From Bdellovibrionales bacterium (GTDB lineage: Bacteria; Bdellovibrionota; Bdellovibrionia; Bdellovibrionales; UBA1609): DNA of 64,000 nt. Shown one piece after another: positions 8,859 through 63,862 of this stretch. The position numbers were made by a program, and so were the translations under genes. Every line of letters starts with the position of its first letter. Position 1 is the first letter of the stretch. A model generated the notes under the pieces. It did not search any database. It saw only the letters and a program-made list of their open reading frames with translations, and was not told the DNA's origin. The stretch lies in contig OZ251448.1 of assembly GCA_965242515.1 (NCBI GenBank), forward strand, positions 722,420 through 786,419, written 5' to 3'.

Positions 8859-10025
8859 ATGAATTTTGTGGCTGTACATCCAGCTATTTTGCGTTGGGCA
8901 AAAAAACGAAGTGGTCAAAGCACTCAGTACCTCTATAAAAAATTTCCTAAATTAAAATCATGGGAAGAGGGTAAAATAAAACCCACATTAAAGCAGTTGG
9001 AAAAATTTACCAAAGCAGTTCATATTCCTATAGGTTATCTATTTTTAGATAAGCCTCCTATTGAAAAAACTCCTATTCCTGATTTTCGTAAAATGCCTAA
9101 CACAAAGCAAAAAAAACCAAGCCCTAACTTATTAGATACACTTTATATTTGTCAACAGCGTCAAAATTGGTATAAAAATTATCTGCATTCTATGAGAGAG
9201 CAACCCTTAGACTTTATTGGCTCTGTTCAACCTTTATCTAATAATATTATTAAAACTGCTGAATGCATCCGTAAAATTTTACACTTTAAAATTGAGGAAA
9301 GGCAAAGTTTAAGTACATGGACCAGTACTCTTAATCAATTAATTGAACAAGCCAATTCTGCAGGTATTCTAGTTATGGTCAACGGAATTGTAGGAAATAA
9401 TACCAATCGTAAATTAAATCCGGAAGAATTCCGTGGCTTTGCTTTATCTGATTCTTTAGCTCCTTTGATTTTTATTAACGGAGCTGATACTAAAGCAGCT
9501 CAAATGTTCACAATAGCTCATGAATTAGCCCATTTATGGATCGATAAAACAGGTTTATCTAATGCTCAAGCTCTTTCTATCTCTAATCATCAAATTGAAA
9601 GTTGGTGTAATAAAGTAGCAGCAGAATTGCTTGTACCTTTTAATATTATTAGTCAACAGTTTAATAATAAAAAAATACAATCTGATTTTAATAATGAAGT
9701 TCAACGGCTTGCAAAATACTTTAAGGTGAGTTCTTTAGTAATTTTGCGTCGTCTTTATGATATAAAAAAACTAGAAGCTAAAAAATTTAATAAACTTTAT
9801 AACAAAGAGCTAACAAAATTACGTACGATCCAAAAGAGCAAACAAAGTAGTGGTGGAGATTTTTTTCTCACTTTAGAGGCTCGTGCCAATCCTCATTTTA
9901 TGAAAGCATTGGTATCTCATACTTTAGAAGGTTACACTCCTTTTAGGGAATCGTTCCAATTACTTGGCATCAAGAAAATGGCAACTTTTAAAAAAATTGG
10001 AAAAAACTTTGGAATAAATTGTTAA
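8859..10025 (+). CDS. XRE-type HTH + ImmA/IrrE-family zinc metallopeptidase
   Basis: N-terminal HTH-like segment, then HELAHLW (HExxH) preceded by FTIA, typical of ImmA/IrrE peptidases. Stop overlaps the next start (TAATG at 10023-10027). Confidence 0.8.
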   Translation: MNFVAVHPAILRWAKKRSGQSTQYLYKKFPKLKSWEEGKIKPTLKQLEKFTKAVHIPIGYLFLDKPPIEKTPIPDFRKMPNTKQKKPSPNLLDTLYICQQRQNWYKNYLHSMREQPLDFIGSVQPLSNNIIKTAECIRKILHFKIEERQSLSTWTSTLNQLIEQANSAGILVMVNGIVGNNTNRKLNPEEFRGFALSDSLAPLIFINGADTKAAQMFTIAHELAHLWIDKTGLSNAQALSISNHQIESWCNKVAAELLVPFNIISQQFNNKKIQSDFNNEVQRLAKYFKVSSLVILRRLYDIKKLEAKKFNKLYNKELTKLRTIQKSKQSSGGDFFLTLEARANPHFMKALVSHTLEGYTPFRESFQLLGIKKMATFKKIGKNFGINC

Positions 10026-10513
10026 TGGTTTATTTACTAGATGCTAATATTTTTATTCAAGCTAAAAATCTACATTATGGGATGGATTTTTGTCCTGCTT
10101 TCTGGGACTGGATTATTAAAAGTAATGCTAAAAAAAAATTATTCAGTATTGAAAAAGTAGAAGATGAATTAAAAGCCATAGAAGATGATTTATCTAAATG
10201 GGCAAAAAAAAGAGGGAATATTTTTTTTTTAAAACCTGATGAACTAGTATTACAAGCTTTAGCAGAAATTAGCCGTTGGATAAACAAGCAAGATTATGAA
10301 AGTGGAGCTAAAAATATATTCCTTCAAGGTGCAGATTATTACCTTATAGCTCAAGCAAAATCAAAACAATACACTATCGTTACACATGAAATACCTTCTG
10401 ATTCAAAGAAAAAAATTAAGATCCCGAATGTTTGTATTGGACTTCAAATAAAATATATAACACCTTATGAAATGCTAAGAAAAGAAAAAGCTCAATTTAT
10501 ACTCAAAACTTAA
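10025..10513 (+). CDS. DUF4411-family (PIN-like) protein, partner of the ImmA/IrrE gene
   Basis: N-terminus (M)VYLLDANIFIQAKNLHYGMDFCPAFWDWI matches my recollection of the DUF4411 N-terminal signature. The track starts at TTG 10019; ATG 10025 gives the TAATG coupling. Confidence 0.7.
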   Translation: MVYLLDANIFIQAKNLHYGMDFCPAFWDWIIKSNAKKKLFSIEKVEDELKAIEDDLSKWAKKRGNIFFLKPDELVLQALAEISRWINKQDYESGAKNIFLQGADYYLIAQAKSKQYTIVTHEIPSDSKKKIKIPNVCIGLQIKYITPYEMLRKEKAQFILKT

Positions 10514-10689: not shown

Positions 10690-11487
10690 TCATTTTTTAG
10701 TTGGTACACAACGATCTAACCTTCTATGTAGAAATGAAATTAAAGAAAAGCAGTCTATAATATCATCTTCATCCCCTTGCCATAAAATTTTAGGCTGATG
10801 TGCAGTTGGATTTCTAAAAGCTGAAAAACAACCTTTTAATAAGGAAGCAAAACCCTTATGTTCACTTTTTTCAGTGTCAGTTTGTAATTTATTAAAAGCT
10901 AAAAGAGGTTGCTCAATAGAAAACACTTTATCCACAAGAAATGTACCATCTTCATCTATTTTTGACTTTTCACGAATACGCTCTGCTAATCCTTTACTAG
11001 CTTCAAATACTGCATGAAATAAGTTATCTTGCATTAATTCAGATTTACAATACTTTAATACCTCTGCATGCATCTTTCTTCCTCTAAGTTTTGAGCGAAT
11101 TGTTTTTACGCTTTTTTCTACTTCATCCAATGTTTGTACTTTTTTGCAATAACAAATCTGTCCAGTACTTTCATAGGTTAAACCAGAAAATACCAATATT
11201 TTGTTTAGTTCTTCTCTATGAGTCTCAAATGTTTCTTTCTGTTCAATAAAATTAACAGGTTGAAAAAATGTTCGTATAAAATCAATTATTTGGTTGGAAC
11301 ACTTATATTTCTTCTGACTTTCCATAAAGATTGAATAGAGTCGTCTCCATTTTGTAGATACTCCAGAATTATCTATTATATTCTTTTCCTGTAAAACACG
11401 ATCAATATCTGATCCTGTACCAATTTCTCCAAGACACCTAGATAAAACTTTTAAGTGAGCAGAATCAAATGTAGGTATTTTGTTCAT
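10690..11487 (-). CDS. TIGR02391 / Abi_C-like protein (family often linked to type I R-M loci)
   Basis: C-terminal LLKGCFSAFRNPTAHQPK...DCFSLISFLHRRLD resembles the RNPxAH signature of TIGR02391/Abi_C. It is the last gene of the hsdR operon, with a 34-nt gap. Confidence 0.65.
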   Translation of the reverse strand: MNKIPTFDSAHLKVLSRCLGEIGTGSDIDRVLQEKNIIDNSGVSTKWRRLYSIFMESQKKYKCSNQIIDFIRTFFQPVNFIEQKETFETHREELNKILVFSGLTYESTGQICYCKKVQTLDEVEKSVKTIRSKLRGRKMHAEVLKYCKSELMQDNLFHAVFEASKGLAERIREKSKIDEDGTFLVDKVFSIEQPLLAFNKLQTDTEKSEHKGFASLLKGCFSAFRNPTAHQPKILWQGDEDDIIDCFSLISFLHRRLDRCVPTKK

Positions 11488-11521: not shown

Positions 11522-13969
11522 TTATTTTTGTTCCCATACAGAGGTTATTTTTTGATGTATTTTTTCTTCATTTATTTTTATTAGTTTTTTGCAAGATTCA
11601 ATATAAGTTTTTTCTTGCTCAATGTTCGCAACAATCTTTTTCTGTATATCTAAAGGTGGTAGTGGTATTTTAATTAAATACACATGATTTCTATTTATTC
11701 CAGGAACTGCTGATTGAGAAGAAATTTTTTCTAAATTAATCTTATTTAGTTGGAAAAATAAAAACTTTAAATTTACTAAATGTACCTTTTTAACTTTAAC
11801 ATAAAAAGTTGTATCTATTGGAAAGCCACTTTGTTCATAATAGTTTACCTTACCAGCAGAACCTTTTCTTCCTACTATAATCAAAGGAGCTTTTATCAAG
11901 TACTTATTATGATAACCAACAATACCATTAGAACCAAATACAGGATAACAACCTACTTTTCTTTTAGATTTTTTTAAAGCTTTTCCATATTCTAAACTGA
12001 ATATTTTTCCTAATTCTACTATAGGGTACGAAGGATCAATCTTAATAGTAGGTTTATAGTTTGTTATAATTTGTTTGGCACCATCAATAATTTTTTGGTA
12101 AGCTTCAAGCTCAGCTACAATTTCTTTTTGTACTTCCAAAGGTGGTAATGGTATTTTTATTTGCTTTAAGTGTTTTCTACTTATTCTTTGCCTACTAGAA
12201 CCAGTTAAATAAATACCAATTTTAGAATACCAATTTTTACATGTTGTTAAATATAATAAAAAAATAGCATGTAATCGTGTTTTGTTCACTCTTATAATAG
12301 TACAATCTACAGCTGTAATCATTTTTGTACTTAATAATGGTACCATACAAGCTCTACCTACAGGATCAGGTAATCTTGATATTAAAATATCACCTGGTAA
12401 TACTTCAGTACAATTTAATCTTTCAAATGTTTGTTTAGTAATAAATCTAGCTTTATCTATTTTATTTAAATACTTTCCTATTCCAATATTACCTGTTTGT
12501 ATAAGTCTGATTCCTGTTTTTGATTGATCTTTTGATTCAACCCAATCACCATCTATAAAAACTTCACACACTGTGCCTAATCCTACCATGGGGTATTTAG
12601 TTATTCTTTGCTTTGTTACTTTATACAGACTGTTAGTCAAATTATAATCACCATCCTTTGAGATTTTATTTTTATTAACTAAGTAGGCTAACTTGCTTTT
12701 TAATTTTTGGTTTTTACCCCATGCTTTTAACACTTTAAAAGCTTCTGGTAAATCATTTTTACTAATCTGTGTCCGTTTTGCTCCTAAATCAAAACCATCA
12801 TTTTGTACATCTATAAACAAAACTTCTTTATTTCTTTTCACCCTTTGCTTATCTAAAAATAAAATACTAGTTTTAACTCCTGCATAAGGCTGAAACACCC
12901 CTTTAGGAAGACTTACTACAGCCCAAAGAAGATGATCCTCCACTAGCTTTTTTCTTAATGCTTTATAAGCTTTATCATTTTTAAAAATAATACCTTCAGG
13001 TACAATAACACCTGCCCGTGCATTATTTGTTAAATGCTCTATTATATAATCCACAAACAAAACTTCTGCCCGATTAGCTAAAATAGAAAACTTTTTATGA
13101 GGGCATATACCTCCTTTAGGAGTCATAAAAGGAGGATTAGCTAGAATTACATCAAATTCATCTCCCCAACGATCATCATGAGTTAATGTGTCGTATTCAT
13201 AAATTTTTGGTTTATTAAAATTATGTAAAAACATATTTACTAAAGAAAGTTTAACCATTTTTGGGGATATGTCATAACCTATAATATTTTTTTGTAATTG
13301 CCTTTTATCTGCTGGTGTTAACCCTCCCTTTGCAAAATTGTAACCATGCTTTTTTAAATTATAATTTTTTGAATTATTTTTGATAATATGTTTATAAGCA
13401 GAAATTAAAAACCCTGCCGTTCCACAAGCAGGGTCTAAAATAGACTCACGCTTTTTAGGATCTACTACCTCTACCATAAAATCAATAATATGCCTCGGAG
13501 TGCGAAACTGCCCCGCATCCCCTTGAGAGCTTAAAATAGAAAGCAAATACTCAAAAGCGTTACCTAATGTTTCGCTATGATCATAAGTAAAGCAATTTAT
13601 TTCCTTTAAAAATAAATTTAAAGTTTTAGCATCTCTATAAGGTAAAAAAGCATTTTTAAAAATTTCTCTAAAAAGAGGGGGTAGATTTTCATTCTTAGGT
13701 AGTTTGCTAATAGCTTGTATGTATAAGCTCATCCTTTTTTGACCAGAAAGCTTTATATCAATAATGTTAGACCAAGAATATTTTTTAAAGTCCCCTGTAA
13801 AAAACTTTGCCTTACCCCCTAGTTGTTTTGAAGCCTTATCCATATCATACATAAATTTGTAAATTAAAGCTGTTGTGATTTGATCCACCTGGGAGGTCGG
13901 ATCAGGTATTTTGCCAACAAGAATGTCTCTTGCTGAATCTATTTTTCTTTTTGTCTGTGTATCTAACAT
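11522..13969 (-). CDS. hsdM: type I R-M fused methyltransferase-specificity subunit (HsdM-HsdS in one ORF)
   Basis: N-terminal half carries DPACGTAGFL (motif I) and ILANPPF (motif IV). The C-terminal ~370 aa has two TRD-like blocks, each followed by an HsdS central/distal conserved helix: IPLPPLEVQKEIVAELEAYQKIIDGAKQII and IPLPPLDIQKKIVANIEQEKTYIESCKKLI. Confidence 0.85.
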   Translation of the reverse strand: MLDTQTKRKIDSARDILVGKIPDPTSQVDQITTALIYKFMYDMDKASKQLGGKAKFFTGDFKKYSWSNIIDIKLSGQKRMSLYIQAISKLPKNENLPPLFREIFKNAFLPYRDAKTLNLFLKEINCFTYDHSETLGNAFEYLLSILSSQGDAGQFRTPRHIIDFMVEVVDPKKRESILDPACGTAGFLISAYKHIIKNNSKNYNLKKHGYNFAKGGLTPADKRQLQKNIIGYDISPKMVKLSLVNMFLHNFNKPKIYEYDTLTHDDRWGDEFDVILANPPFMTPKGGICPHKKFSILANRAEVLFVDYIIEHLTNNARAGVIVPEGIIFKNDKAYKALRKKLVEDHLLWAVVSLPKGVFQPYAGVKTSILFLDKQRVKRNKEVLFIDVQNDGFDLGAKRTQISKNDLPEAFKVLKAWGKNQKLKSKLAYLVNKNKISKDGDYNLTNSLYKVTKQRITKYPMVGLGTVCEVFIDGDWVESKDQSKTGIRLIQTGNIGIGKYLNKIDKARFITKQTFERLNCTEVLPGDILISRLPDPVGRACMVPLLSTKMITAVDCTIIRVNKTRLHAIFLLYLTTCKNWYSKIGIYLTGSSRQRISRKHLKQIKIPLPPLEVQKEIVAELEAYQKIIDGAKQIITNYKPTIKIDPSYPIVELGKIFSLEYGKALKKSKRKVGCYPVFGSNGIVGYHNKYLIKAPLIIVGRKGSAGKVNYYEQSGFPIDTTFYVKVKKVHLVNLKFLFFQLNKINLEKISSQSAVPGINRNHVYLIKIPLPPLDIQKKIVANIEQEKTYIESCKKLIKINEEKIHQKITSVWEQK

Positions 13970-14018: not shown

Positions 14019-15227
14019 TCAACACCCATTGGGTTTAAATAAAAAATCAGGCTGCAATTGCTCTTCTGGAATATCTGTTTCCAAAGGTAAATAAATTTCA
14101 GTTTGTAAATTTATTTGTTTTAAGTATTGACACATCATAGGACCTACCACCTTCCAACTTAAACCACCTAACCCACAACCTAAAGCTGGTAAAGCTAAAG
14201 AGGTAATACCTTGGTTTTGATAATTGGTCACCAACCACTTTAAACCTTTTTCAATGCCTTCAAGAGGGGATTTTTCTCGCCAATGATTCTTGGTGGGAAA
14301 TAGCAAAAACCAACGATGACCATTTTCTGTCACAGCAGAAGGCACATCCTCCATAAGAGCTCTAACAAAATTAGCCTCTCTTTTATAAAGAACAGGAGTC
14401 CCCATTTTTAATTTCCTTTTATAGCAAAGAGCTTGATACTCTGTGTAGACATCCGGAAACTGATTTTTAGATCGAGAAGCCAAACCTTTACCCATAACAC
14501 CCACAGTATTAACACTGATTGTAAAAGTTTGCATTTCTGCAAAAAACATATCCCCCTTTTTTAAAGTAATATGAGCTAACCCTTCTTTTTGACTGGTTTG
14601 TTGTTGAAAAGGAAAAATAACTTGTTTGTATTCAGAAAGAAAAAACATTTTAGGATTTAACATAATATTTAAACCACCTATATCTATGCTTTGCCTAATT
14701 TGATTAGCGATTTTTTGAGTGGCTGTATAGATTCCTATAATTTTGTCCTTTGGAATATGATCTTGAACTAATACTTCTGCCATAATTTTTCTATTAGAAC
14801 CATCTTCTGCACTCCAATATTCCCGTTCAAACTGTTCAGAATTTAAAACACTTAAGCCTTTATTTTTATCTTCAAAAAACTGTGTTATTGAGGAGGAGGC
14901 ATTGCCATCTGTAATACCTATATTCAAACTATCTATAATATCTGCATCAATCTCTAAAACCACAATATTTTCTATTCCAAATTCTTTAATCACCCGATAA
15001 AGCATGGGATTGCGAGCTTGAAAATATACATTCGCATAGTCCCAAAGAGATTTTCCTCTAAATTCCCTTTCTTTTCTCCTAGCAATAACTTCCTTATCAT
15101 AAATAACCTTTTTCTTAAGAATCCGACTCCATACAGGTGCTTTACGATGAGATAAGATTCCATTTTTTAAAATGGACTTTAAATTATCTCTATGAGATAT
15201 ATAATATAAATGCTTTGGTCTATTCAT
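14019..15227 (-). CDS. DarT-like (DUF4433) ADP-ribosyltransferase fused to a DarG-type macrodomain
   Basis: aa 1-~190: LYYISHRDNLKSILKNGILS, YANVYFQARNPMLY, GITDGNASS, RKIMAEVLVQDHIP. aa ~225-400: ISVNTVGVMGKGLASRSKNQFPDVY, LLFPTKNHWREKS, ITSLALPALGCGLGGLSW. One uninterrupted 402-aa ORF. Confidence 0.8.
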   Translation of the reverse strand: MNRPKHLYYISHRDNLKSILKNGILSHRKAPVWSRILKKKVIYDKEVIARRKEREFRGKSLWDYANVYFQARNPMLYRVIKEFGIENIVVLEIDADIIDSLNIGITDGNASSSITQFFEDKNKGLSVLNSEQFEREYWSAEDGSNRKIMAEVLVQDHIPKDKIIGIYTATQKIANQIRQSIDIGGLNIMLNPKMFFLSEYKQVIFPFQQQTSQKEGLAHITLKKGDMFFAEMQTFTISVNTVGVMGKGLASRSKNQFPDVYTEYQALCYKRKLKMGTPVLYKREANFVRALMEDVPSAVTENGHRWFLLFPTKNHWREKSPLEGIEKGLKWLVTNYQNQGITSLALPALGCGLGGLSWKVVGPMMCQYLKQINLQTEIYLPLETDIPEEQLQPDFLFKPNGC

Positions 15228-15256: not shown

Positions 15257-17797
15257 TTAGTCCAGAAAAGTAGTTAAATTCACATAGTTTTTAATATACT
15301 CTGGTATTATTGTTTGCCAGCCAGTTTTTTTTCCTCCTAAAGCTTGAAAATCTTCCATATCAAAACCAGCATTAGTATAAAGAGATGTAAGTTCTTTATT
15401 ATCAATAATATCTCTAAATTTTGAATTCGTAATATAAGATCTTATATAATTTACAATGTATGGAACATATTGAGGGTCTGGGTTATAAATAGAAATAAAT
15501 TTATCACACTCGTCTTTTAAAAGTTCTTCTTTTTTTGGAAAAGAATCAATCACTCCAAATACCCTCTGTAAAACTTCTCTCCAAGTAATTCGCCTATCTA
15601 GTTGCACTGCTTTTTTTATCTTTTCTAAACTCAAATATAGCTCTGGTTTATCTTCATATTTTTTAACAGCTATAGCTTCTGCTTTTTGCCATTGTTCCTT
15701 ATTTACAGCTAATTTTAATTCTTTATCTTTAACCAGAACATCTTTTGCCTTTCCCCATAGTTCCCTATCTACTCTCATACCTTCTAACCCTACTGCTTTT
15801 TCAGAAAGAGTTTTTAAAGAATCAGGATCATTAACTCTAACTTCATCAATATTAATACCTGCACCTTCTTCTGTGCTTGTATTTTGACCTTTTAACAGTG
15901 GCAGTTTTAAAGCTTCGTCATAGTTAAATTGATTTTCAAAAAATTCACAAACCGCAAAAAAATCAAACAGTTTAAATTTGTCTTTTTTTATTTTGTGTTC
16001 TTGATTGTTTTCATCCTTATATTTAAAAATGAATTTTCTAGTGCCACGCCCTTTCATTTGTATAAAATCTGTGGGAGAAAACACTGGTCTCATTAAACAA
16101 AGGTTTAAAATATCCTGACAATCATAACCTGTTGTCATCATACGCACTGTCACACAAACTCTTGTTTTACTAGACTTGTAACCCTCTAAACACTTTGTAT
16201 AACCATTTAATTTATTATTAGCAAAATTGATAGTATGTTGCTGAGCATTTTCAACATTAGATGTAACTTGTACAGCAAAATCAGAATTGTACTTGCCAGC
16301 CCATAAATTATGAGCCATTTTATTTAAAATCTGAGTAATTTTAGAAGCATGCTTTTGACTAACACAAAAAATAATACTCTTTCCAATCTCTCCACTTATT
16401 GGGTCTTTAAGAGCATGATCTAAAAAAGTTTTACAAAAAGCTATATTTGTTTTTTTAGAAAAAAACTTTTTCTCAAAATCTGTTTGATAAAAAACTTGCT
16501 CCTCTTCTTCTTGATCTTCATCTTCAATTTTAACACTATAGCCTTTTTCTGATAATAACTCTGTTGTTATGTCTGTTCTAGCATCCGATACAACAGGGTT
16601 AATTAAATACCCTTGTTTTACTCCGTCCATTAAACTATATTTAAATGTTGGCTCACTATCTTCACAACCAAATGTAGTATAAGTATCTAAGAGAAGTCGC
16701 CTTTCCCACTTTCTTTGATCTTTTTCTGCTAACTCTTGTTTATTAATGTTTTTCAAATAATCTTTCGGAGTAGCTGTTAAACCTAGCTTATACCCTATAA
16801 AATACTCAAATACTGCCCGACTATTACCACCAATAGACCTATGAGCTTCATCTGAAATAAGTAAGTCAAAATCTGTTGGGGAAAAAAATCTTTTATACTT
16901 ATTGCCTGCTAATAAACTTTGCACAGTGGAAATAACAATTTCTGCCTTATTCCAATTGTCTTTGTGTTCTTTATAAATTACTGATGTATAATCATTTTTT
17001 AAATAGTTTGTAAAATGCTTATAAGCTTGATCTTCAAGCTCTAACCTATCAACTAAAAATAAAATTCTTTTTGCATTTCCTGTTCTAAGAAAAAGCTTTA
17101 TAATAGCTGATGAAAGCAAGGTTTTACCTGTTCCTGTTGCCATTTCAAATAAAAACCGCTTTTTATCTTTTTGAGCATCAGCTTGTAAAGCCTTAATAGC
17201 CTTAACTTGATAAGGTCGTAAAATACGAACCCCATATTGATCTGCTAAAACCTGTTTTTTATCAGGGTTATTCCAGTCAGGGTCTTGAAGAAGCTCCGGT
17301 TTTTGAGAACTAGCAATGTAGTCCTCGCTAACCAATTCCTGCGATAACTTTTTAGGACTAGGTTTAAAACAAATTCTATGCTTAAAAGACTCCTGAGTAG
17401 GGAATTCTATAATCCCTTCAGGGTTACCAGATTCTAAATCCCAAAAATAATGTAAATTTCCGTTAGATAAAATCACAAAACGAACATTAACACTATGAGC
17501 GTATTTTCTAGCTTGCTCTTTAGCATCTAAAGGGTCTTTTTCTTCTCTTTTTGCCTCTAATACCGCCAAAGGAAAACCTTTTGCATCTAACAGTACATAA
17601 TCTACCCTACCATTTTTTGTGTTTTCAAAATTATCACCTTTAGCTAATAGGTCTTTTTTAGTAATTTTAACATTTAGTTCTAATTGAATGTTAGCTGTTT
17701 TTTTAGAATCTTTTGGATCATCAAAAAATCTCCAACCTGCTTTTTCTAACAGTTTGTTGATTTTAATACGAGCTTGAGCTTCTTTTTTAATAGACAT
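15257..17797 (-). CDS. hsdR: type I restriction enzyme R subunit (PD-(D/E)xK nuclease + SF2 helicase)
   Basis: N-terminus EAQARIKINKLLEKAGWRF and VDYVLLD...LAVLEAKRE (nuclease motif). MATGTGKT (Walker A), LISDEAHR (DEAH box), TGYDCQ and MKGRGTR helicase motifs. Confidence 0.85.
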   Translation of the reverse strand: MSIKKEAQARIKINKLLEKAGWRFFDDPKDSKKTANIQLELNVKITKKDLLAKGDNFENTKNGRVDYVLLDAKGFPLAVLEAKREEKDPLDAKEQARKYAHSVNVRFVILSNGNLHYFWDLESGNPEGIIEFPTQESFKHRICFKPSPKKLSQELVSEDYIASSQKPELLQDPDWNNPDKKQVLADQYGVRILRPYQVKAIKALQADAQKDKKRFLFEMATGTGKTLLSSAIIKLFLRTGNAKRILFLVDRLELEDQAYKHFTNYLKNDYTSVIYKEHKDNWNKAEIVISTVQSLLAGNKYKRFFSPTDFDLLISDEAHRSIGGNSRAVFEYFIGYKLGLTATPKDYLKNINKQELAEKDQRKWERRLLLDTYTTFGCEDSEPTFKYSLMDGVKQGYLINPVVSDARTDITTELLSEKGYSVKIEDEDQEEEEQVFYQTDFEKKFFSKKTNIAFCKTFLDHALKDPISGEIGKSIIFCVSQKHASKITQILNKMAHNLWAGKYNSDFAVQVTSNVENAQQHTINFANNKLNGYTKCLEGYKSSKTRVCVTVRMMTTGYDCQDILNLCLMRPVFSPTDFIQMKGRGTRKFIFKYKDENNQEHKIKKDKFKLFDFFAVCEFFENQFNYDEALKLPLLKGQNTSTEEGAGINIDEVRVNDPDSLKTLSEKAVGLEGMRVDRELWGKAKDVLVKDKELKLAVNKEQWQKAEAIAVKKYEDKPELYLSLEKIKKAVQLDRRITWREVLQRVFGVIDSFPKKEELLKDECDKFISIYNPDPQYVPYIVNYIRSYITNSKFRDIIDNKELTSLYTNAGFDMEDFQALGGKKTGWQTIIPEYIKNYVNLTTFLD

Positions 17798-17896
17798 ATT
17801 CTTCTTGTTTGTATTTGAAAGATTTTATTATAACAAAAACATAAGGAATAGTCAAGAGGTTATTAAAAGTAATTATGCTGATTTTTATCAATATTG

Positions 17897-17955
17897 TCAA
17901 AAGTGTCTCAAAATGATACACTTTTATTAAAGATAATAATTTGCTTAACTGATAT
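17897..17955. repeat. ~55-bp repeat with a palindromic core (copy 1 of 2)
   Basis: aaagtgtctcaaaatgatacacttttattaaagataataatttgctt matches 22608-22665 at about 80% by eye. The core agtgtctc-N-gaKacact is an inverted repeat. Confidence 0.6.
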
Positions 17956-17996: not shown

Positions 17997-19085
17997 CTAC
18001 TGCTTTTTTGAATGCTGTTTCTGTAGCTTTTTAAGCTCTTTTTCTGATAGCCCCGTCACCTCTGCAATAAACGGAATATCTACATTTTTCCGAAACATAT
18101 TCGCAATCACCTGTCGTCTTTCTTCCAGCCTGCCTTTTAGCTCACCAACTTGCATACCCTCTTGCAAGTATTTTTGTCTGGCTTGCAACATACCCTTCTT
18201 TATGCCTTTTGCCGTAGCTTCATCTAATGAGTATTGTAATGGTGCCATAACTCTTTCCTCCTTATCTGTTATTGTTTTAGCCTCTATCTTTCGCACGACC
18301 GTCCAACTAAAGTTCGGATCATACCTGACTATATAATCTGCAACCTTATCTATTAACTGTCTTCTTTTACCTATACTTATAACCTTGCTTAACTTAAATA
18401 AATCCCTTATCGTGCTATACTCTAACTTCCATATATTTTGCAGTATAAATAGTACCGGGCGAGAAAGCAAGTCCTCTATCTTCTTATCCCTTACATTTAG
18501 CTTGCTTATGTTAAGCAATCTATAACTAAAATTCAGCACATTTTTACCGAATGCTTGTTTTAAACTGCCTTCAAAGCCTGTTAAGCTATCTTGAAAAGCT
18601 AAAGGCTTGTTCCACTGCTTTTGCCTGCCATGGTAGATAACAATAGGTATAATGGGGAGTTTTGTTTTCTTGTAAATAGATGTTTGGTACTCCAGTAATT
18701 GTTGATGAATATTAGGTGCTTGTGAGCTTTTATGCTCTACTAAAAAAAGCATGCCTACTGTTTCGTTACTAGCTTTTTTCAGCTTTGCAGAAAGAAGAAG
18801 ATCTGTACGCTTTTCTTTAGAATCTTGGTCTATAAAAGTAGTAACTTCTGATTTAAGAGTGTTCCAATCAAAAAGAGCCATTTCTTGAGGGGTGAACACT
18901 AAGCGAAAAAGGTCTAGACAGTGCTTAGGTTTGGTGTAGATTTCTTTAAAGAAAATGTCGTGCAAAAAAGCTTTGCTTTTTTTGCCCTGCTTTGGGGCTT
19001 GTTTTAGGGCTTTTTTGTTCTGTTGTTTGTTTTGCGATTGAGCTTGTTTGCAAGCTTTAGTGGTATCAGGTTTTATTTTAGCCAT
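17997..19085 (-). CDS. Rpn-family recombination-promoting nuclease / putative transposase (PD-(D/E)xK, YhgA-like)
   Basis: HDIFFKEIYTKPKHCLDLFRLVF, TDLLLSAKL...MLFLVEHKSSQ, IIPIVIYHG and a C-terminal helical tail (IAEVTGLSEKELKKLQ) are typical of this family. Confidence 0.8.
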   Translation of the reverse strand: MAKIKPDTTKACKQAQSQNKQQNKKALKQAPKQGKKSKAFLHDIFFKEIYTKPKHCLDLFRLVFTPQEMALFDWNTLKSEVTTFIDQDSKEKRTDLLLSAKLKKASNETVGMLFLVEHKSSQAPNIHQQLLEYQTSIYKKTKLPIIPIVIYHGRQKQWNKPLAFQDSLTGFEGSLKQAFGKNVLNFSYRLLNISKLNVRDKKIEDLLSRPVLFILQNIWKLEYSTIRDLFKLSKVISIGKRRQLIDKVADYIVRYDPNFSWTVVRKIEAKTITDKEERVMAPLQYSLDEATAKGIKKGMLQARQKYLQEGMQVGELKGRLEERRQVIANMFRKNVDIPFIAEVTGLSEKELKKLQKQHSKKQ

Positions 19086-20839: not shown

Positions 20840-21151
20840 TTATTGTTTGTTTTTGTTTATCCTAGAATCAAAGCCTCTTAACTCCTTAGCTTCAGACGCT
20901 CCAACTCCCTTTAATCCATAATCCCATTCCATACCCCTAAGTTTTAAATCTGAATTGTACTTTTCAGCATGTTTTTTTAAAATCTCTAACTTGTGATTTG
21001 TATCCTTTACATAAGATTCCCACCTTGTGATCCTGTTATAGTAATAAAGTCCATAAAAACTTATACAGCACATGGTGAATCCAAAATGCATAAATAACAG
21101 AGCCGTTATGAATTTCTTATCATACTTTGTAAGGTTTGATTTTTCAGACAT
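20840..21151 (-). CDS. hypothetical small membrane protein, probably co-transcribed with the pilin
   Basis: The track ORF extends to 21214. ATG at the complement of 21149-21151 is preceded by GGAGG. One hydrophobic segment (FITALLFMHFGFTMCCISFYGLYYY). Confidence 0.45.
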   Translation of the reverse strand: MSEKSNLTKYDKKFITALLFMHFGFTMCCISFYGLYYYNRITRWESYVKDTNHKLEILKKHAEKYNSDLKLRGMEWDYGLKGVGASEAKELRGFDSRINKNKQ

Positions 21152-21239
21152 TACTGCCTCCATGTGTTTCAATTTGGGTGGATTCCTGCTCAACATTATC
21201 TCTGTCAATATCACTTAATAAACTATTTCTTTGGTATAA

Positions 21240-21347
21240 GGGGAAAAACCAATTCAAAACGAGTTCGGATTTAACGCAAAGTGGTAGCCTTTGGCTAACA
21301 CTTTTGCGGTAAACCGCAGTCCAAAGCTTTTGACTTGGTTTTTCCCC
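21240..21347. repeat. ~110-nt imperfect palindromic element, copy 1 (subfamily a)
   Basis: ggggaaaaaccaattcaaaacgagttcggatttaacgcaaagtggtagcctttggctaacacttttgcggtaaaccgcagtccaaagcttttgacttggtttttcccc. The outer, middle and apical arms are self-complementary. Confidence 0.85.
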
Positions 21348-21413
21348 TATACGCATAAAGTAGTCATAAGCGAATAATCCTCTCTGCACTTTATTATGTA
21401 CAAATAACTTTCT

Positions 21414-21476
21414 GGATTCCCGCCTTCGCGGGAATGACAGTGGATGCAGGAATGACAGCGGACGCAGAAATGACAA
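21414..21476. repeat. REP-like unit: palindrome ATTCCCGC-CTTC-GCGGGAAT followed by degenerate GAATGACA repeats
   Basis: ggattcccgccttcgcgggaatgacagtggatgcaggaatgacagcggacgcagaaatgaca. The same unit recurs at 21765, 39344 and 63799, and in inverted form at 63745. Confidence 0.85.
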
Positions 21477-21524
21477 TGGTAGAAAAACCAGATTCGAAAA
21501 CAAAAACATATATGCTTCATTGCA

Positions 21525-21637
21525 GAGAGAAAAACCATGCTCAAAACGAGTTCGGATTTGATACAAAGTGGTAAGCTGAAAGCTTGACACTTTGTAGCAA
21601 ACCGCATGTTTGAGATTTTGAGCTCGGTTTTTCTCTC
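21525..21637. repeat. ~110-nt imperfect palindromic element, copy 2 (subfamily b)
   Basis: gagagaaaaaccatgctcaaaacgagttcggatttgatacaaagtggtaagctgaaagcttgacactttgtagcaaaccgcatgtttgagattttgagctcggtttttctctc. Confidence 0.85.
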
Positions 21638-21764
21638 TGTGAAAGAAACTTTTTAAATAATGAACCAGCCTGGATTCCTGCCTTCGCACACCCAAAGGGT
21701 GTTTATTTTGACACACTCCTTGCACCAACAACTTAATAGCTGTCAATGGTACAAAATTCTTGCT

Positions 21765-21826
21765 GGATTCCCGCCTTCGCGGGAATGACAGTTGACGAAG
21801 AAATGACAGTTGACGAAAAAATGACG
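21765..21826. repeat. REP-like unit (ATTCCCGC-CTTC-GCGGGAAT + GAAATGACA repeats)
   Basis: ggattcccgccttcgcgggaatgacagttgacgaagaaatgacagttgacgaaaaaatgacg. Confidence 0.85.
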
Positions 21827-21905
21827 AGCGATGAAAGAAATAAAACAGATAACTAATGTAATTCTTTAATGCTGTTTTTAAATAGTGAAATGATGTTCTT
21901 GAATA

Positions 21906-22015
21906 GTGAGAAAACCAATTCAAAACGAGTTCGGATTTGATACAAAGTGGTAAGCTGAAAAGCTTGACACTTTGTGGCAAACCGCATGTTTGAGCTTTTG
22001 ACTTGGTTTTCTCAC
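21906..22015. repeat. ~110-nt imperfect palindromic element, copy 3 (subfamily b)
   Basis: gtgagaaaaccaattcaaaacgagttcggatttgatacaaagtggtaagctgaaaagcttgacactttgtggcaaaccgcatgtttgagcttttgacttggttttctcac. Confidence 0.85.
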
Positions 22016-22144
22016 TAACCAAGTACTTACAACTAACCAAATATTTATAGAACCGAGTAAAGAGAAAACGATAAAGAGCGTTAGCTCTTTTACTCCCCCC
22101 GCTTAGTAAGCGGGGGGTTGGGGGGGTGATTAAATTAATTAATA

Positions 22145-22296
22145 GATGTAACGATGTAACGATGTAACGATGTAACGATGTAACGATGTAACGATGTAAC
22201 GATGTAACGATGTAACGATGTAACGATGTAACGATGTAACGATGTAACGATGTAACGATGTAACGATGTAACGATGTAACGATGTAACGATGTAAC
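22145..22296. repeat. perfect tandem array, 19 x 8 bp (GATGTAAC)
   Basis: Counted unit by unit: first unit 22145-22152, last 22289-22296, no mismatch. This array generates the spurious RYIVTSLH-repeat ORFs in the track. Confidence 0.95.
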
Positions 22297-22607
22297 GAGA
22301 ATAACACATTAGCTTCATATTGTCAAGCCTTTGTGTAAAAATAATCTTACTAAAAGTAAGTTTAAAAAAAAGCATTAAAAATTATCTCCAATAGTGTTGT
22401 GCCTTAATGTTAGCTTTATCGGCGGGATTAAAAAAGACTTTAGTACTTTTTTTTAAAATAATCTGGACTTGTGGCTGGATTTTAAACAGCAACAATTTTT
22501 GTCACCGCCCGTGGCTCGCCAAAAAACCCACCACTGGGCTAGTTAGTGACTAGGTTTTAAACAATCGCCCCGCTTAAAAAAAAAATTAAAGTTTTTTTAC
22601 TTTTTTT

Positions 22608-22710: not shown

Positions 22711-22785
22711 GGGTTCTTTAAGCTTTCAGAAAAAGAGCTAAAAAAGCTACAAAAAAAGCATATCTCAAGCAAAAACACCATGTAA
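22711..22785 (+). pseudogene. relic of the 3' end of an Rpn-family gene
   Basis: Translates GFFKLSEKELKKLQKKHISSKNTM*. Protein and DNA resemble the C-terminus of the intact Rpn gene (GLSEKELKKLQKQHSKKQ*; ctatcagaaaaagagcttaaaaagctacagaaacagcat vs ctttcagaaaaagagctaaaaaagctacaaaaaaagcat). No upstream body. Confidence 0.4.
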
Positions 22786-23001
22786 CTGGAGAGGTAATTG
22801 TTTGGCAGAAAAATAAAAAAATCTCTGTAATTTCAATAGTTTAACCCATGTAACGGGCATGTAACTGGAGGAGCTGATTACATGGCAATAAAATGAAAAA
22901 AGTTCTTTGATTTTAAGGGTTTAAGCCATGTAACTCAGCATGTAACTGGAAATGAGTAGTGAATATTCGCAAAAAAAGCTGTTTTTAGTGAGTTATCAGG
23001 G
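22766..23001. repeat. direct repeat A flanking the Schlafen-like gene (28-bp head + 178-bp body) with five ATGTAAC motifs
   Basis: Body 22824-23001 equals 24695-24872 with 4 mismatches in 178. ATGTAAC at 22780, 22848, 22859, 22928 and 22940. Confidence 0.9.
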
Positions 23002-23129: not shown

Positions 23130-24581
23130 ATGAACAATTCGCAATTTAAACAACTCATAAAAAGCCTTTTACAAGCTCAGGAATCAGAGTGGTTGGAATT
23201 TAAAAAGAGCAATGATAATCCTGATGGTATTGGCAAAAACATATCTGCTATTTCTAACTCAATAGCATTATTAGGAAGGGACCAAGGGTATATATTATGG
23301 GGTATTGATAATAAGAGCAAAAAAATTTTAGGAACAAGCTTTCAACCCAAAAAATTTAAGATCGGAAATGAAGAGTTGGAAAATTGGCTTTCAAGATTGT
23401 TAAATCCTAAAATTGATTTTAGGATTTATGAAAAAGAAATTGATAAAAAAAATATTATTTTGTTGGAAATTAAGTCTTCTGTAAACCAGCCTACAAGGTT
23501 TAAAGGTATTGAATACATACGCATTGGAAGTTATACAAAAAAATTACAAGAACATCCTGAAAAAGAGAAAACACTTTGGAAAGTATTTGATGTTAAGTCT
23601 TTTGAAAATGGGATAGCTTTGGAAAATATCACTTCTGATGAAGTTTTGAAATTGATAGACTACCCAGGTTATTTTAAAAAGGCTGATCAGCCTATTCCTG
23701 AAAAGCATTCTTCTATCTTAGATCGTTTAACGACTGAACAAATTATTGTTCCTAAAAATGCTTCTGGAATCTATAACATAACAAATCTAGGTGCTGTTTT
23801 ATTTTGTAATGATTTAAAAAATTTCCAAAGGCTTATTAAAAAAGCACCAAGAGTTATTGTTTATAAAGGGACTGACCGTATTCATGGAATAAGAGAAAAA
23901 CAATTTAATAAAGGATATGCTATAGATTTTGAAAATATCGTTGATTATGTTGACAGTCAGGTTCCTAAAAATGAGGAAATACAAAAATCTCTTCGTAAAG
24001 AAGTTTCTATGTACCCTACTTTAGCTATTCGGGAACTTATAGCTAATGCACTTATACATCAGGATTTTAATTCTAAAGGTTCTGGACCAATGATTGAGAT
24101 TTTTTCTGATAGAATGGAAATTTCTAACCCTGGAAAACCGCTAATTGATACTCTTCGTTTTATAGATGAACCTCCTAAATCAAGAAATGAATTTATAGTT
24201 AATTTTATGAGACGAGTGAATATCTGTGAAGATAGAGGAAGTGGTATTGATAAAGTTATTTTTGAAATCGAATTTTATCAATTACCAGCACCAGATTTTC
24301 GGGAAACAGGTTTTTCCACAATTGTTACACTTTTTGCAACAAAAACATTTTCTAAAATGACCACTGAAGAGCGAATAAGAGCCTGTTATCAGCATGCTTG
24401 TCTTCAGTGGGTTTCAGGGCGGTTTCTGACTAATTCAAGCCTTAGAAAAAGATTTGGCATTTCTGACAAAAACTATCCTATGGTTTCTCAAGTGATACGC
24501 ACTAGTATAGAAAAAAAGTTGATAAGAAAAAAAAATGATCATAATTCCAATACTCATTCTTATATTCCAGCTTGGGGATAG
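23130..24581 (+). CDS. Schlafen/AlbA_2-domain + HATPase_c_4 + C-terminal wHTH putative regulator (RecG-like annotation family)
   Basis: ESEWLEFKKS (AlbA_2 signature). RELIANALIHQDF...IEIFSDRMEISNPGKPL (HATPase_c_4 signature). C-terminal FLTNSSLRKRFGISDKNYPMVSQVIRTSIEKKLI looks like a wHTH. Confidence 0.8.
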   Translation: MNNSQFKQLIKSLLQAQESEWLEFKKSNDNPDGIGKNISAISNSIALLGRDQGYILWGIDNKSKKILGTSFQPKKFKIGNEELENWLSRLLNPKIDFRIYEKEIDKKNIILLEIKSSVNQPTRFKGIEYIRIGSYTKKLQEHPEKEKTLWKVFDVKSFENGIALENITSDEVLKLIDYPGYFKKADQPIPEKHSSILDRLTTEQIIVPKNASGIYNITNLGAVLFCNDLKNFQRLIKKAPRVIVYKGTDRIHGIREKQFNKGYAIDFENIVDYVDSQVPKNEEIQKSLRKEVSMYPTLAIRELIANALIHQDFNSKGSGPMIEIFSDRMEISNPGKPLIDTLRFIDEPPKSRNEFIVNFMRRVNICEDRGSGIDKVIFEIEFYQLPAPDFRETGFSTIVTLFATKTFSKMTTEERIRACYQHACLQWVSGRFLTNSSLRKRFGISDKNYPMVSQVIRTSIEKKLIRKKNDHNSNTHSYIPAWG

Positions 24582-25053: not shown

Positions 25054-25805
25054 GGGTCATGACAACTTAAGCCTTACATGATAAGGTTTAAATCTTGAAA
25101 ATTATTAAGAAAAATAAGTATTTTGTGCGTTCCCGCATTTCTGAGAAGAAATTTCGCCATATTATTAAGCTTTTTTCGAATGATCTCACAGCTTCACAAA
25201 TTGCTAGATTATCCAATATTAGCAGAAATTCTGTTAATAAAATCTTAAAAACTGTAAGATTAAAGATAGCTCAATTTTGTGAAAAAGAAAGTTTTTTTAA
25301 AAAAGGAGAAGTAGAAATAGATGAAAGTTATTTTGGAGCTAGACGAATCAAAGGCAGAAGAGGAAGAGGATCTTATGGTAAAACTATTGTGTTTGGTCTT
25401 AAACAAAGACAAGGTAAGGTTTATACTCAAATTATTAAAAATTGTTCACACAAGACCCTTATTCCCCTTATAAGTAATAGAATATCTAAATCTGCTACTG
25501 TTTATACAGATGGTTTTAAAAGCTACGATGGTCTAGTCAATATGGGTTACAAAAAACATTATCGTGTGTATCATGGGAAGAATGAATTTGCCACAAAACG
25601 AGGTAATGTGAAGAATCATATTAATGGTATAGAAAGCTTTTGGGGGACCTCCAAAGTGAGGTTATCAAAGTTTAGAGGAATGGATAAAGATACTTTTTAC
25701 TTGCATCTTAAAGAATGTGAGTTTAGGTTTAATCACAGGAAGGATGACTTGTATACTTTGTTGTTAAAAATGATTAAAAATAACCCGCTTAAGTTGTCAT
25801 GACCC
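25054..25805 (+). mobile_element. intact IS1595-family insertion sequence with target-site duplication
   Basis: Perfect 19-bp terminal inverted repeats: gggtcatgacaacttaagc (25054-25072) and gcttaagttgtcatgaccc (25787-25805). Flanked by the 8-bp direct duplication ATCGGTTA (25046-25053 and 25806-25813). Confidence 0.9.
25095..25802 (+). CDS. IS1595-family DDE transposase
   Basis: IDESYFGARRIKGRRGRGSYGKTIVFGL..., TVYTDGFKSYDGL, NHINGIESFWGTSKVRLSKFRGM and ECEFRFNHR are typical of ISXO2-like/IS1595 transposases. Confidence 0.9.
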   Translation: MKIIKKNKYFVRSRISEKKFRHIIKLFSNDLTASQIARLSNISRNSVNKILKTVRLKIAQFCEKESFFKKGEVEIDESYFGARRIKGRRGRGSYGKTIVFGLKQRQGKVYTQIIKNCSHKTLIPLISNRISKSATVYTDGFKSYDGLVNMGYKKHYRVYHGKNEFATKRGNVKNHINGIESFWGTSKVRLSKFRGMDKDTFYLHLKECEFRFNHRKDDLYTLLLKMIKNNPLKLS

Positions 25806-39343: not shown

Positions 39344-39406
39344 GGATTCCCGCCTTCGCAGGAATGACGGCTGACGCAGGAATGACGGCTGACGAAGAAA
39401 TGACAA
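39344..39406. repeat. REP-like unit (variant palindrome + GAATGACGG repeats)
   Basis: ggattcccgccttcgcaggaatgacggctgacgcaggaatgacggctgacgaagaaatgaca. Preceded at 39262-39320 by truncated arms of the ~110-nt palindromic element. Confidence 0.8.
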
Positions 39407-63610: not shown

Positions 63611-63862
63611 CGGGAATGACCAAGAAGAACAGGGATGACAATGTAAAAACAGAAACGACAATGTGAGAACAGGAGTGACAATATAACTACAGGGATGACA
63701 GTCTAGCCTGTTATTGCCTTATAACCTGTTATTGCCCTATAGCCCGTCATTCCCGTGAAAACGGGAATCCAGAATGCCACTTTTACGCATACAAGCCTGG
63801 ATTCCCGCCTTCGCGGGAATGACCAAGAAAAACAGGAGTGACGAACAAAAACAGGAATGACA
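63611..63862. repeat. cluster of REP-like units and a 20-bp tandem repeat
   Basis: cgggaatgac followed by four exact-period 20-bp units ending in RRNGACA (63621-63700). cctgttattgcc x2. Inverted REP cgtcattcccgtgaaaacgggaatccag (63745-63772). Canonical ggattcccgccttcgcgggaatgacc (63799-63824) with trailing GAGTGACG/GAATGACA repeats. Confidence 0.8.

Follow-up and report, generated by a model that had tools for sequence, protein, structure and literature searches.

How can a toxin and the enzyme that undoes its damage be kept in balance when both are built into one polypeptide chain? This question is raised by a gene at positions 14019-15227 of a 64,000-nucleotide stretch of DNA from a Bdellovibrionales bacterium (contig OZ251448.1, positions 722,420 to 786,419), hereafter called the window, in which a DarT toxin domain and a DarG-type macrodomain are joined. 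In DarTG systems, DarT ADP-ribosylates thymidine in single-stranded DNA (ssDNA), blocking replication, and the DarG macrodomain strips the mark off again (PMC5179494). Herein, we argue that the gene very probably encodes a natural fusion, a single-chain DarTG like the one crystallized as PDB entry 7OMU, with a DarT2-like writer and a macrodomain eraser, together forming a self-contained mobile module.

The gene is one unbroken open reading frame (ORF) of 402 codons on the minus strand, in which the sole stop is the terminal one. Its parts are listed below; alignment A1, on which some of the boundaries rest, compares the window protein with 30 fused homologues of 48-78% identity, and pLDDT is the predicted local distance difference test score of the structural model discussed further on.

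14019..15227, minus strand: single-chain DarTG gene (402 aa), DarT domain plus DarG/TARG1-type macrodomain, from the ORF list, the profiles, and the 7OMU match
14643..15206, minus strand: DarT (DUF4433) domain, aa 8-195, from Pfam PF14487
14571..14642, minus strand: interdomain linker, aa 196-219, from alignment A1 and low pLDDT
14073..14570, minus strand: DarG/TARG1-type macrodomain, aa 220-385, from PADLOC DarG and PDB 5M31
14022..14072, minus strand: C-terminal tail (YLPxE..IPxExLxPxFLL), conserved within the fused family in A1

Profiles from Pfam, PADLOC, and NCBIfam agree on this layout. The DarT half is matched by Pfam PF14487 (aa 8-195, E 1.3e-42, 146 bits against a cut-off of 22.5), by the PADLOC DarT profile (aa 3-196, E 4.6e-40), and by NCBIfam toxin_DarT (aa 7-189). 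In the other half, Pfam Macro (PF01661) covers aa 311-361 (E 8e-8), PADLOC DarG (E 2.8e-47) and NCBIfam antitoxin_DarG both cover aa 220-385, and the macrodomain of Thermus aquaticus (Taq) DarG, PDB 5M31, matches with an E value of 1.9e-22. The first-pass annotation, made by a model from the letters of the window alone, had proposed the same pair of domains in one protein and quoted seven motifs, all of which are present where it had placed them: LYYISHRDNLKSILKNGILS (aa 7-26), YANVYFQARNPMLY (64-77), GITDGNASS (104-112), and RKIMAEVLVQDHIP (146-159) in the DarT half, and NTVGVMGKGLASRSKNQFPDVY (240-261), LLFPTKNHWREKS (308-320), and LALPALGCGLGGLSW (344-358) in the macrodomain half.

It had further remarked that the additional domain of DarG is missing, and this is borne out. 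The PADLOC DarG profile is matched at positions 2-149 of 329 only and antitoxin_DarG at positions 1-152 of 338 only, while the protein itself stops 17 aa past the macrodomain. As a control, the DarG of a split pair (locus L013) spans positions 6-338 of the latter profile, and with its C-terminal domain as the query, tblastn gave no match in the whole 64-kb window (best E 3.2). Since the DarG profiles are matched only to about position 150, the DarG C-terminal DarT-binding domain is, judged by sequence, absent from the fused protein. The short tail that is present instead has three columns, E383, L391, and L396, that are invariant in A1.

The closest structural counterpart is likewise a fusion. 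The top PDB match is one chain of 406 residues (7omu_AAA), and no separate DarT or DarG outranks it. A phmmer search aligned residues 3-397 of the query to residues 22-404 of this chain (E 4.1e-107), and blastp gave 44.7% identity across 398 columns. We identify 7OMU by the title that Foldseek lists for its PDB entry, "Thermosipho africanus DarTG in complex with ADP-ribose". The entry was deposited together with the Thermus sp. 2.9 DarT structures 7OMV-7ON0 and was released on 2021-06-23, the same date as the Thermus DarT entries 7OMV-7OMY; we take all of these to belong to Schuller et al. 2021 (Nature 596:597).

The structure prediction that the first-pass annotation had called for leads to the same entry. 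An AlphaFold2 model of the fused protein, built on the 30-sequence alignment, has a mean pLDDT of 86.6 and a predicted template-modeling score (pTM) of 0.85, with very low confidence limited to the linker (aa 213-215) and a loop of the macrodomain (aa 298-302). In a Foldseek search of the PDB, 7OMU ranks first, with template-modeling scores of 0.86 (TMq) and 0.92 (TMt) and a root-mean-square deviation of 2.5 Å over 398 columns; the runners-up are Thermus sp. 2.9 DarT, the Mycobacterium tuberculosis (Mtb) DarTG complex, the Taq and Mtb DarG macrodomains, and TARG1. The predicted overall fold and relative domain arrangement are thus the same as in 7OMU. The fused DarTG architecture is therefore already known, as a natural fusion was crystallized in 2021, and the first-pass annotation, which was aware of no characterized fused form, is overtaken on this point, at the structural level.

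Before the joined halves are taken at face value, one should consider that a lost stop codon or a frameshift, introduced by sequencing or assembly, could have merged separate darT and darG genes. The genome appears to be of the metagenome type and its closest relatives are metagenome-assembled genomes (MAGs); moreover, tblastn matches one locus (L009) in two pieces that lie in different frames, showing that errors or pseudogenes do occur. Against this stand the continuous frame of the window gene, with no stop or frame change in the sequence of the linker (14571..14642), and the consideration that the C-terminal domain, which is absent here, would be expected if a canonical darG had been merged. 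The homologues speak even more clearly. A search of 5.8 billion proteins gave 2477 matches, and nearly all of the best 120, which were looked at, combine PF14487 with PF01661 in a single ORF of similar length (385-430 aa, 47-78% identity), coming from independent assemblies and several phyla. The exceptions among these 120 are a few fragments of 323-350 aa and three proteins with PF14487 only; more than 100 database clusters have the fused layout of about 390 aa. In addition, when 1.84 billion representatives (50% clustering) were searched without filters, at least 24 full-length fused ones covered the query from about residue 5 to 398. The loci of fused genes lie in Bdellovibrionales MAGs (58-71% identity), in Chloroflexota/Anaerolineae, and in other MAGs. 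With such a recurring architecture, a cloned and crystallized homologue with the same fusion (7OMU), and a continuous frame, we reject an artefact of assembly or sequencing as hardly credible. To judge from these predicted proteins, the fusion is a conserved architecture in independent genomes.

A few features of the family may be added here. None of the 120 listed homologues is the natural T. africanus sequence, the nearest of them being 58% identical to it. Across the fused family in A1, variability is greatest in the linker; the window protein shares an insertion of about a dozen residues (about aa 205-218) with its closest relatives only, whereas most fused homologues miss it and two (P0002 and P0005) carry insertions of their own. 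Six relatives of 440-610 aa (P0161, P0163, P0168, P0171, P0172, and P0198) have their macrodomain match at the C-terminal side and a second matched stretch, and these may be DarT-macrodomain fusions in which the linker is longer or a further domain has been inserted. In plasmid and phage collections, only split DarT and DarG pairs (about 30% identity) and no close fused relative were found. In three of the plasmid matches (H2, H8, and H12), 94-97% of the fused query is covered by one tblastn piece, yet the records annotate two genes there, one for a DUF4433/DarT and one for a macrodomain protein; these may be two genes that abut in the same frame, or fusions that were wrongly split.

Are both halves still enzymes? 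In A1, the residues H12, R51, Y68, R72, G108-N109-A110, and M149-A150-E151 of the DarT half are invariant, as are N240, G243, G246, K313, W316, and G350-C-G-L-G354 of the macrodomain half, the latter stretch being its conserved phosphate loop. The predicted catalytic residues are Glu151 (codon at nt 14775-14777, minus strand) and Lys313 (codon at nt 14289-14291, minus strand). E151 is the counterpart of the conserved Glu of the family, E160 in Taq DarT, of which mutation removes toxicity (PMC5179494). Likewise, K313, N240, and G352 align with K80, N22, and G119 of Taq DarG, all of which are required for hydrolysis (PMC5179494). As both active sites are invariant across the homologues, both enzymatic activities are probably retained in the fused protein.

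One might nonetheless suppose that the DarT half has degenerated into a mere DNA- or NAD-binding module, leaving a protein that acts solely as an ADP-ribosyl hydrolase undoing foreign marks. Its DarT score does lie under the NCBIfam equivalog cut-off, and orphan DarG-like erasers are known in phages and hosts (PMC13309987, PMC11825919). We consider this highly improbable. The Glu and the other family-invariant residues of DarT are kept across the 30 homologues under clear purifying selection, in line with the retained catalytic Glu noted by the first-pass annotation. Furthermore, the column of E151 holds Ala in both crystallized constructs, KIMAACLV in 7OMU and KKQAAFLV in Thermus DarT (7OMV), and a Glu-to-Ala substitution at this position is the one used to inactivate DarT for expression.

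With two apparently intact halves, the single-chain DarTG can be placed among its known relatives. It shares with T. africanus DarTG the succession of DarT, short linker, DarG-type macrodomain, and short conserved tail in one chain, as well as the lack of the DarG C-terminal domain; on the other hand, the identity is only about 45%, the window protein has its extra linker insertion, and its host belongs to a Bdellovibrionales-like lineage. The two-gene DarTG2 systems (of T. aquaticus, M. tuberculosis, and enteropathogenic Escherichia coli, EPEC) have the DarT fold and catalytic Glu in common with it, as well as the macrodomain residues equivalent to K313, N240, and G352 and the frequent insertion between hsdS and hsdR of type I restriction-modification (R-M) operons. 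They differ in that writer and eraser of the window protein form one polypeptide from one ORF without the DarT-binding domain of DarG, and the sequence identity between the fused protein and the split systems is only about 25-35%.

DarTG1 follows the same principle, a DarT-family base ADP-ribosyltransferase (DarT1) paired with a reversing hydrolase (PMC11543638), but there the eraser is a NADAR protein, whereas in the window it is a macrodomain. E. coli C7 DarT1 (8BAQ) is related distantly, by fold only (TMt 0.64, 18% identity). Thermus sp. 2.9 DarT, by contrast, matches the DarT half by sequence (E 6.6e-10) and with a TMt of 0.77-0.79. Because Thermus DarT is matched by sequence and DarT1 by fold only, and because the eraser is a macrodomain, the DarT half is nearer to DarT2 (Thermus and Mtb DarT) than to DarT1. 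Finally, TARG1 (C6orf130) matches the macrodomain half (E about 2e-8; TMt 0.82-0.85) with the catalytic Lys kept, yet it is a stand-alone eukaryotic enzyme to which no transferase is fused.

Taken together, the window gene most likely encodes a single-chain, DarTG2-like module for reversible ssDNA ADP-ribosylation, carried as defense or addiction cargo. The N-terminal half would act as an ADP-ribosyltransferase that uses NAD+ to modify a base in ssDNA, and the C-terminal half as a macrodomain that hydrolyzes the ADP-ribose mark. As the DarG domain that sequesters DarT is absent, neutralization would have to rest on enzymatic reversal, possibly combined with packing of the two domains in cis. 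There is a precedent for the former, in that the macrodomain alone neutralizes Taq DarT in vivo (PMC5179494). At a stoichiometry of 1:1, continuous reversal would keep the host DNA clean, and modification would build up once DNA is written on faster than it is erased, for example, when phage ssDNA is abundant. Alternatively, the trigger could be inhibition of the macrodomain or a cut in the linker. All of these properties, from ssDNA ADP-ribosylation itself to the target base, the trigger, and the role in phage defense, abortive infection, or operon addiction, are inferred.

Several points temper this assignment. Both halves score under the NCBIfam equivalog cut-offs (104.3 against 150 for toxin_DarT and 151.4 against 250 for antitoxin_DarG), whereas the split pair of locus L013 passes them (182.9 against 150 and 404.7 against 250). 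By these scores, the window protein is a divergent DarTG relative and no ordinary canonical copy, and the target base or motif of the fused family could consequently differ from thymidine. An eraser tethered at 1:1 also bars the classical "labile antitoxin" trigger unless the chain is cleaved, which makes a role as toxin or in defense less secure than for two-gene DarTG. Lastly, no functional study or text on the biology of a fused DarTG was found in the searchable literature, which did not cover the 2021 structure paper.

It is the tether, too, that lends some appeal to a housekeeping-type role, in which a reversible DNA-modifying enzyme tunes replication or the response to DNA damage and the eraser keeps the mark transient. 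The covalent 1:1 ratio excludes differential decay of the antitoxin, and some homologues sit between housekeeping genes, such as pdxJ and acpS in three loci (L023-25). Schuller et al. (2021) reportedly described ADP-ribosylation at the origin region of M. tuberculosis as a form of growth control. Such a role is nevertheless decidedly unlikely here: the fused gene is patchily distributed among close genomes, the neighbors among its relatives are frequently R-M, HNH, transposase, Rpn, PIN, SLFN/AlbA_2, and AAA-ATPase genes, and the window gene itself shares its island with Rpn, ImmA/DUF4411, and IS1595 genes, as is typical of mobile defense cargo.

A further variant keeps the single-chain DarTG but gives it a trigger that two-gene systems do not have, namely, cleavage or unfolding of the variable linker, with its lineage-specific insertion, on infection or inhibition of the macrodomain by a phage factor, with coupling to the processing of DNA by HsdR as a possibility for those copies embedded in R-M operons. 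We regard this variant as unlikely, though what residual interest the locus has lies in how a toxin covalently tethered to its antitoxin would be triggered. A large and diverse fused family with both active sites conserved represents a compact, single-gene module for reversible DNA ADP-ribosylation, and the fused form offers a clean test of whether reversal alone, at 1:1, controls DarT and yet permits phage defense.

Coupling to a restriction enzyme comes to mind owing to the genes on either side. The first-pass annotation had described the fusion as embedded in a type I R-M operon, and rightly so, as hsdR precedes it and a fused hsdM-hsdS gene follows it. The cluster, in addition to the fused gene, consists of the following.

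17827..17900, minus strand: two sigma-70-like promoter matches (11/12 each) upstream of hsdR, consensus match only
15257..17797, minus strand: hsdR, type I restriction subunit (EcoAI/type IB-like), with ResIII, HSDR_N, and Helicase_C; REase_I
11522..13969, minus strand: hsdM-hsdS fused in an 815-aa ORF, with N6_Mtase at aa 132-453 and two Methylase_S stretches
10690..11487, minus strand: Hypoth_Ymh (TIGR02391)/PD-Lambda-3_B-like gene (Pfam PF09509, E 1e-39; PADLOC, E 1.8e-77)

The gap from hsdR to the start of the fused gene is 29 nt on the same strand, and hsdM-hsdS begins 49 nt past its stop. The hsdR gene is matched by NCBIfam restrict_EcoAI (E 1.9e-72) and PADLOC REase_I, and hsdM-hsdS by PADLOC MTase_I (E 1e-97) and Specificity_I. 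The predicted HsdR, HsdM, and HsdS functions are thus encoded together on one strand, and the fused DarTG gene is probably cotranscribed with them. Both of the best promoter-like sites fall inside the 200-nt gap upstream of hsdR and constitute a candidate operon promoter, but promoter-like sites in this AT-rich region are not above expectation (43 found against 38.6 expected in shuffles).

Two observations concern the other genes of the cluster. The HsdS part of the 815-aa ORF has two target-recognition domains, and the M-S fusion is also seen in loci L002 and L005; a single-chain M-S is unusual among type I systems. The Hypoth_Ymh gene, which shows a weaker match to Aga_HEPN, is the last of the cluster, 34 nt past hsdM-hsdS, and is probably further defense cargo within the same operon.

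Might the fused protein, then, be an accessory subunit of the type I enzyme, marking DNA that HsdR produces or translocates, or in cross-talk with methylation by HsdM? The gaps are tight, and the only strong promoter-like sites sit upstream of hsdR. The identical order HsdR-DarTG-HsdMS recurs in L002, and in L005, hsd genes lie nearby in the order HsdR-HsdMS-AAA_13-DarTG-N6_N4 methylase. Cross-talk between methylation and ADP-ribosylation has also been raised before, by Jankevicius et al. (PMC5179494). However, homologues at 48-60% identity are found alone or beside unrelated genes (L001, L003, L018, L019-22, L023-25, L026, and L029), their neighbors being housekeeping genes, an HNH gene, a transposase gene, or hypothetical genes, and others adjoin R-M genes of other types (type III-like Res and methylase genes in L004 and L027, the N6_N4 methylase gene in L005). 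Moreover, split DarTG functions without any hsd genes (PMC5179494), and the position between hsdS and hsdR is reported to be a hotspot where unrelated cargo is inserted as well (PMC12255303). These solo contexts make an obligate partnership with Hsd proteins unlikely; they also weaken the coupling to HsdR/HsdMS that the first-pass annotation had listed among possible triggers, and we give an accessory-subunit role a slim chance.

The single-chain DarTG is, rather, a self-contained module, as its distant fused homologues often stand alone among unrelated genes; it is found often, but not always, in R-M or defense neighborhoods, and it is no Hsd subunit. In the window, the fused module would have landed between hsdR and hsdM-S, a known landing site of DarTG. 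Indeed, Jankevicius et al. reported in 2016 that DarTG is inserted in type I R-M operons (PMC5179494), and in 2025, DarTG2 between hsdS and hsdR of EPEC was shown to be part of a functional, coregulated phage-defense island (PMC12255303). The type I R-M context has hence already been described for DarTG and is not new.

The genes farther out fit the picture of mobile cargo. The following lie on either side of the hsd-darTG cluster.

8859-10513, plus strand: ImmA/IrrE-type M78 peptidase gene (388 aa) and DUF4411 gene (164 aa; Pfam DUF4411, E 9e-56)
17997-19085, minus strand: Rpn/YhgA-family recombination-promoting nuclease gene, upstream of hsdR
23130-24581, plus strand: SLFN/AlbA_2 plus HATPase_c_4 gene
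25095-25802, plus strand: IS1595-family transposase gene

Together with the hsd-darTG cluster and the repeats treated below, these genes suggest the presence of a mobile defense island at about 8.8-26 kb of the window. The ImmA/IrrE and DUF4411 genes overlap by 7 nt, run convergently with the hsd cluster, and look like a two-gene toxin-antitoxin or defense-type pair. At an unrelated locus (L018), an SLFN/AlbA_2-HATPase_c_4 gene pair is found about 4 kb from a fused DarTG gene.

Between the Rpn and SLFN/AlbA_2 genes lies a noncoding, repeat-rich stretch of about 2 kb (about 21.2-23.1 kb) that coincides with the minimum of the GC skew. A replication origin next to dnaA was considered for it and dropped, as the adjacent gene is SLFN/AlbA_2-HATPase_c_4 and not DnaA. 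Its repeats, one family of which also occurs elsewhere in the window, are the following.

22145-22298: perfect tandem array of the 8-mer GATGTAAC, 19.2 copies, 100% identity
21233-21349, 21520-21637, and 21899-22017: three copies of an element of about 120 nt with long inverted-repeat ends
21417-21438, 21768-21789, 39347-39368, 63746-63767 (minus strand), and 63802-63823: dispersed palindromic repeat TTCCCGCCTTCGCGGGAATGAC

The GATGTAAC array may serve as a phase-variable tract or may hold a series of binding sites for a regulator. An apparent ORF of 387 aa with SLHRYIVT repeats (21144-22307, minus strand) is an artefact of this array. Upstream of the SLFN/AlbA_2 gene, an 80-bp x2 repeat (22779-22950) contains six occurrences of related motifs, CATGTAAC(T/G)G. 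The elements of about 120 nt gave no match in Rfam; the arms of one copy (21895-21925 and 21996-22026) are 87% complementary, and the elements look like miniature inverted-repeat transposable elements or structured RNA. Finally, TTCCCGCCTTCGCGGGAATGAC occurs five times in the window against zero expected, every copy being followed by short 18-20-bp arrays that end in GAATGAC, and it is probably a repetitive extragenic palindrome-like intergenic repeat family of the source genome.

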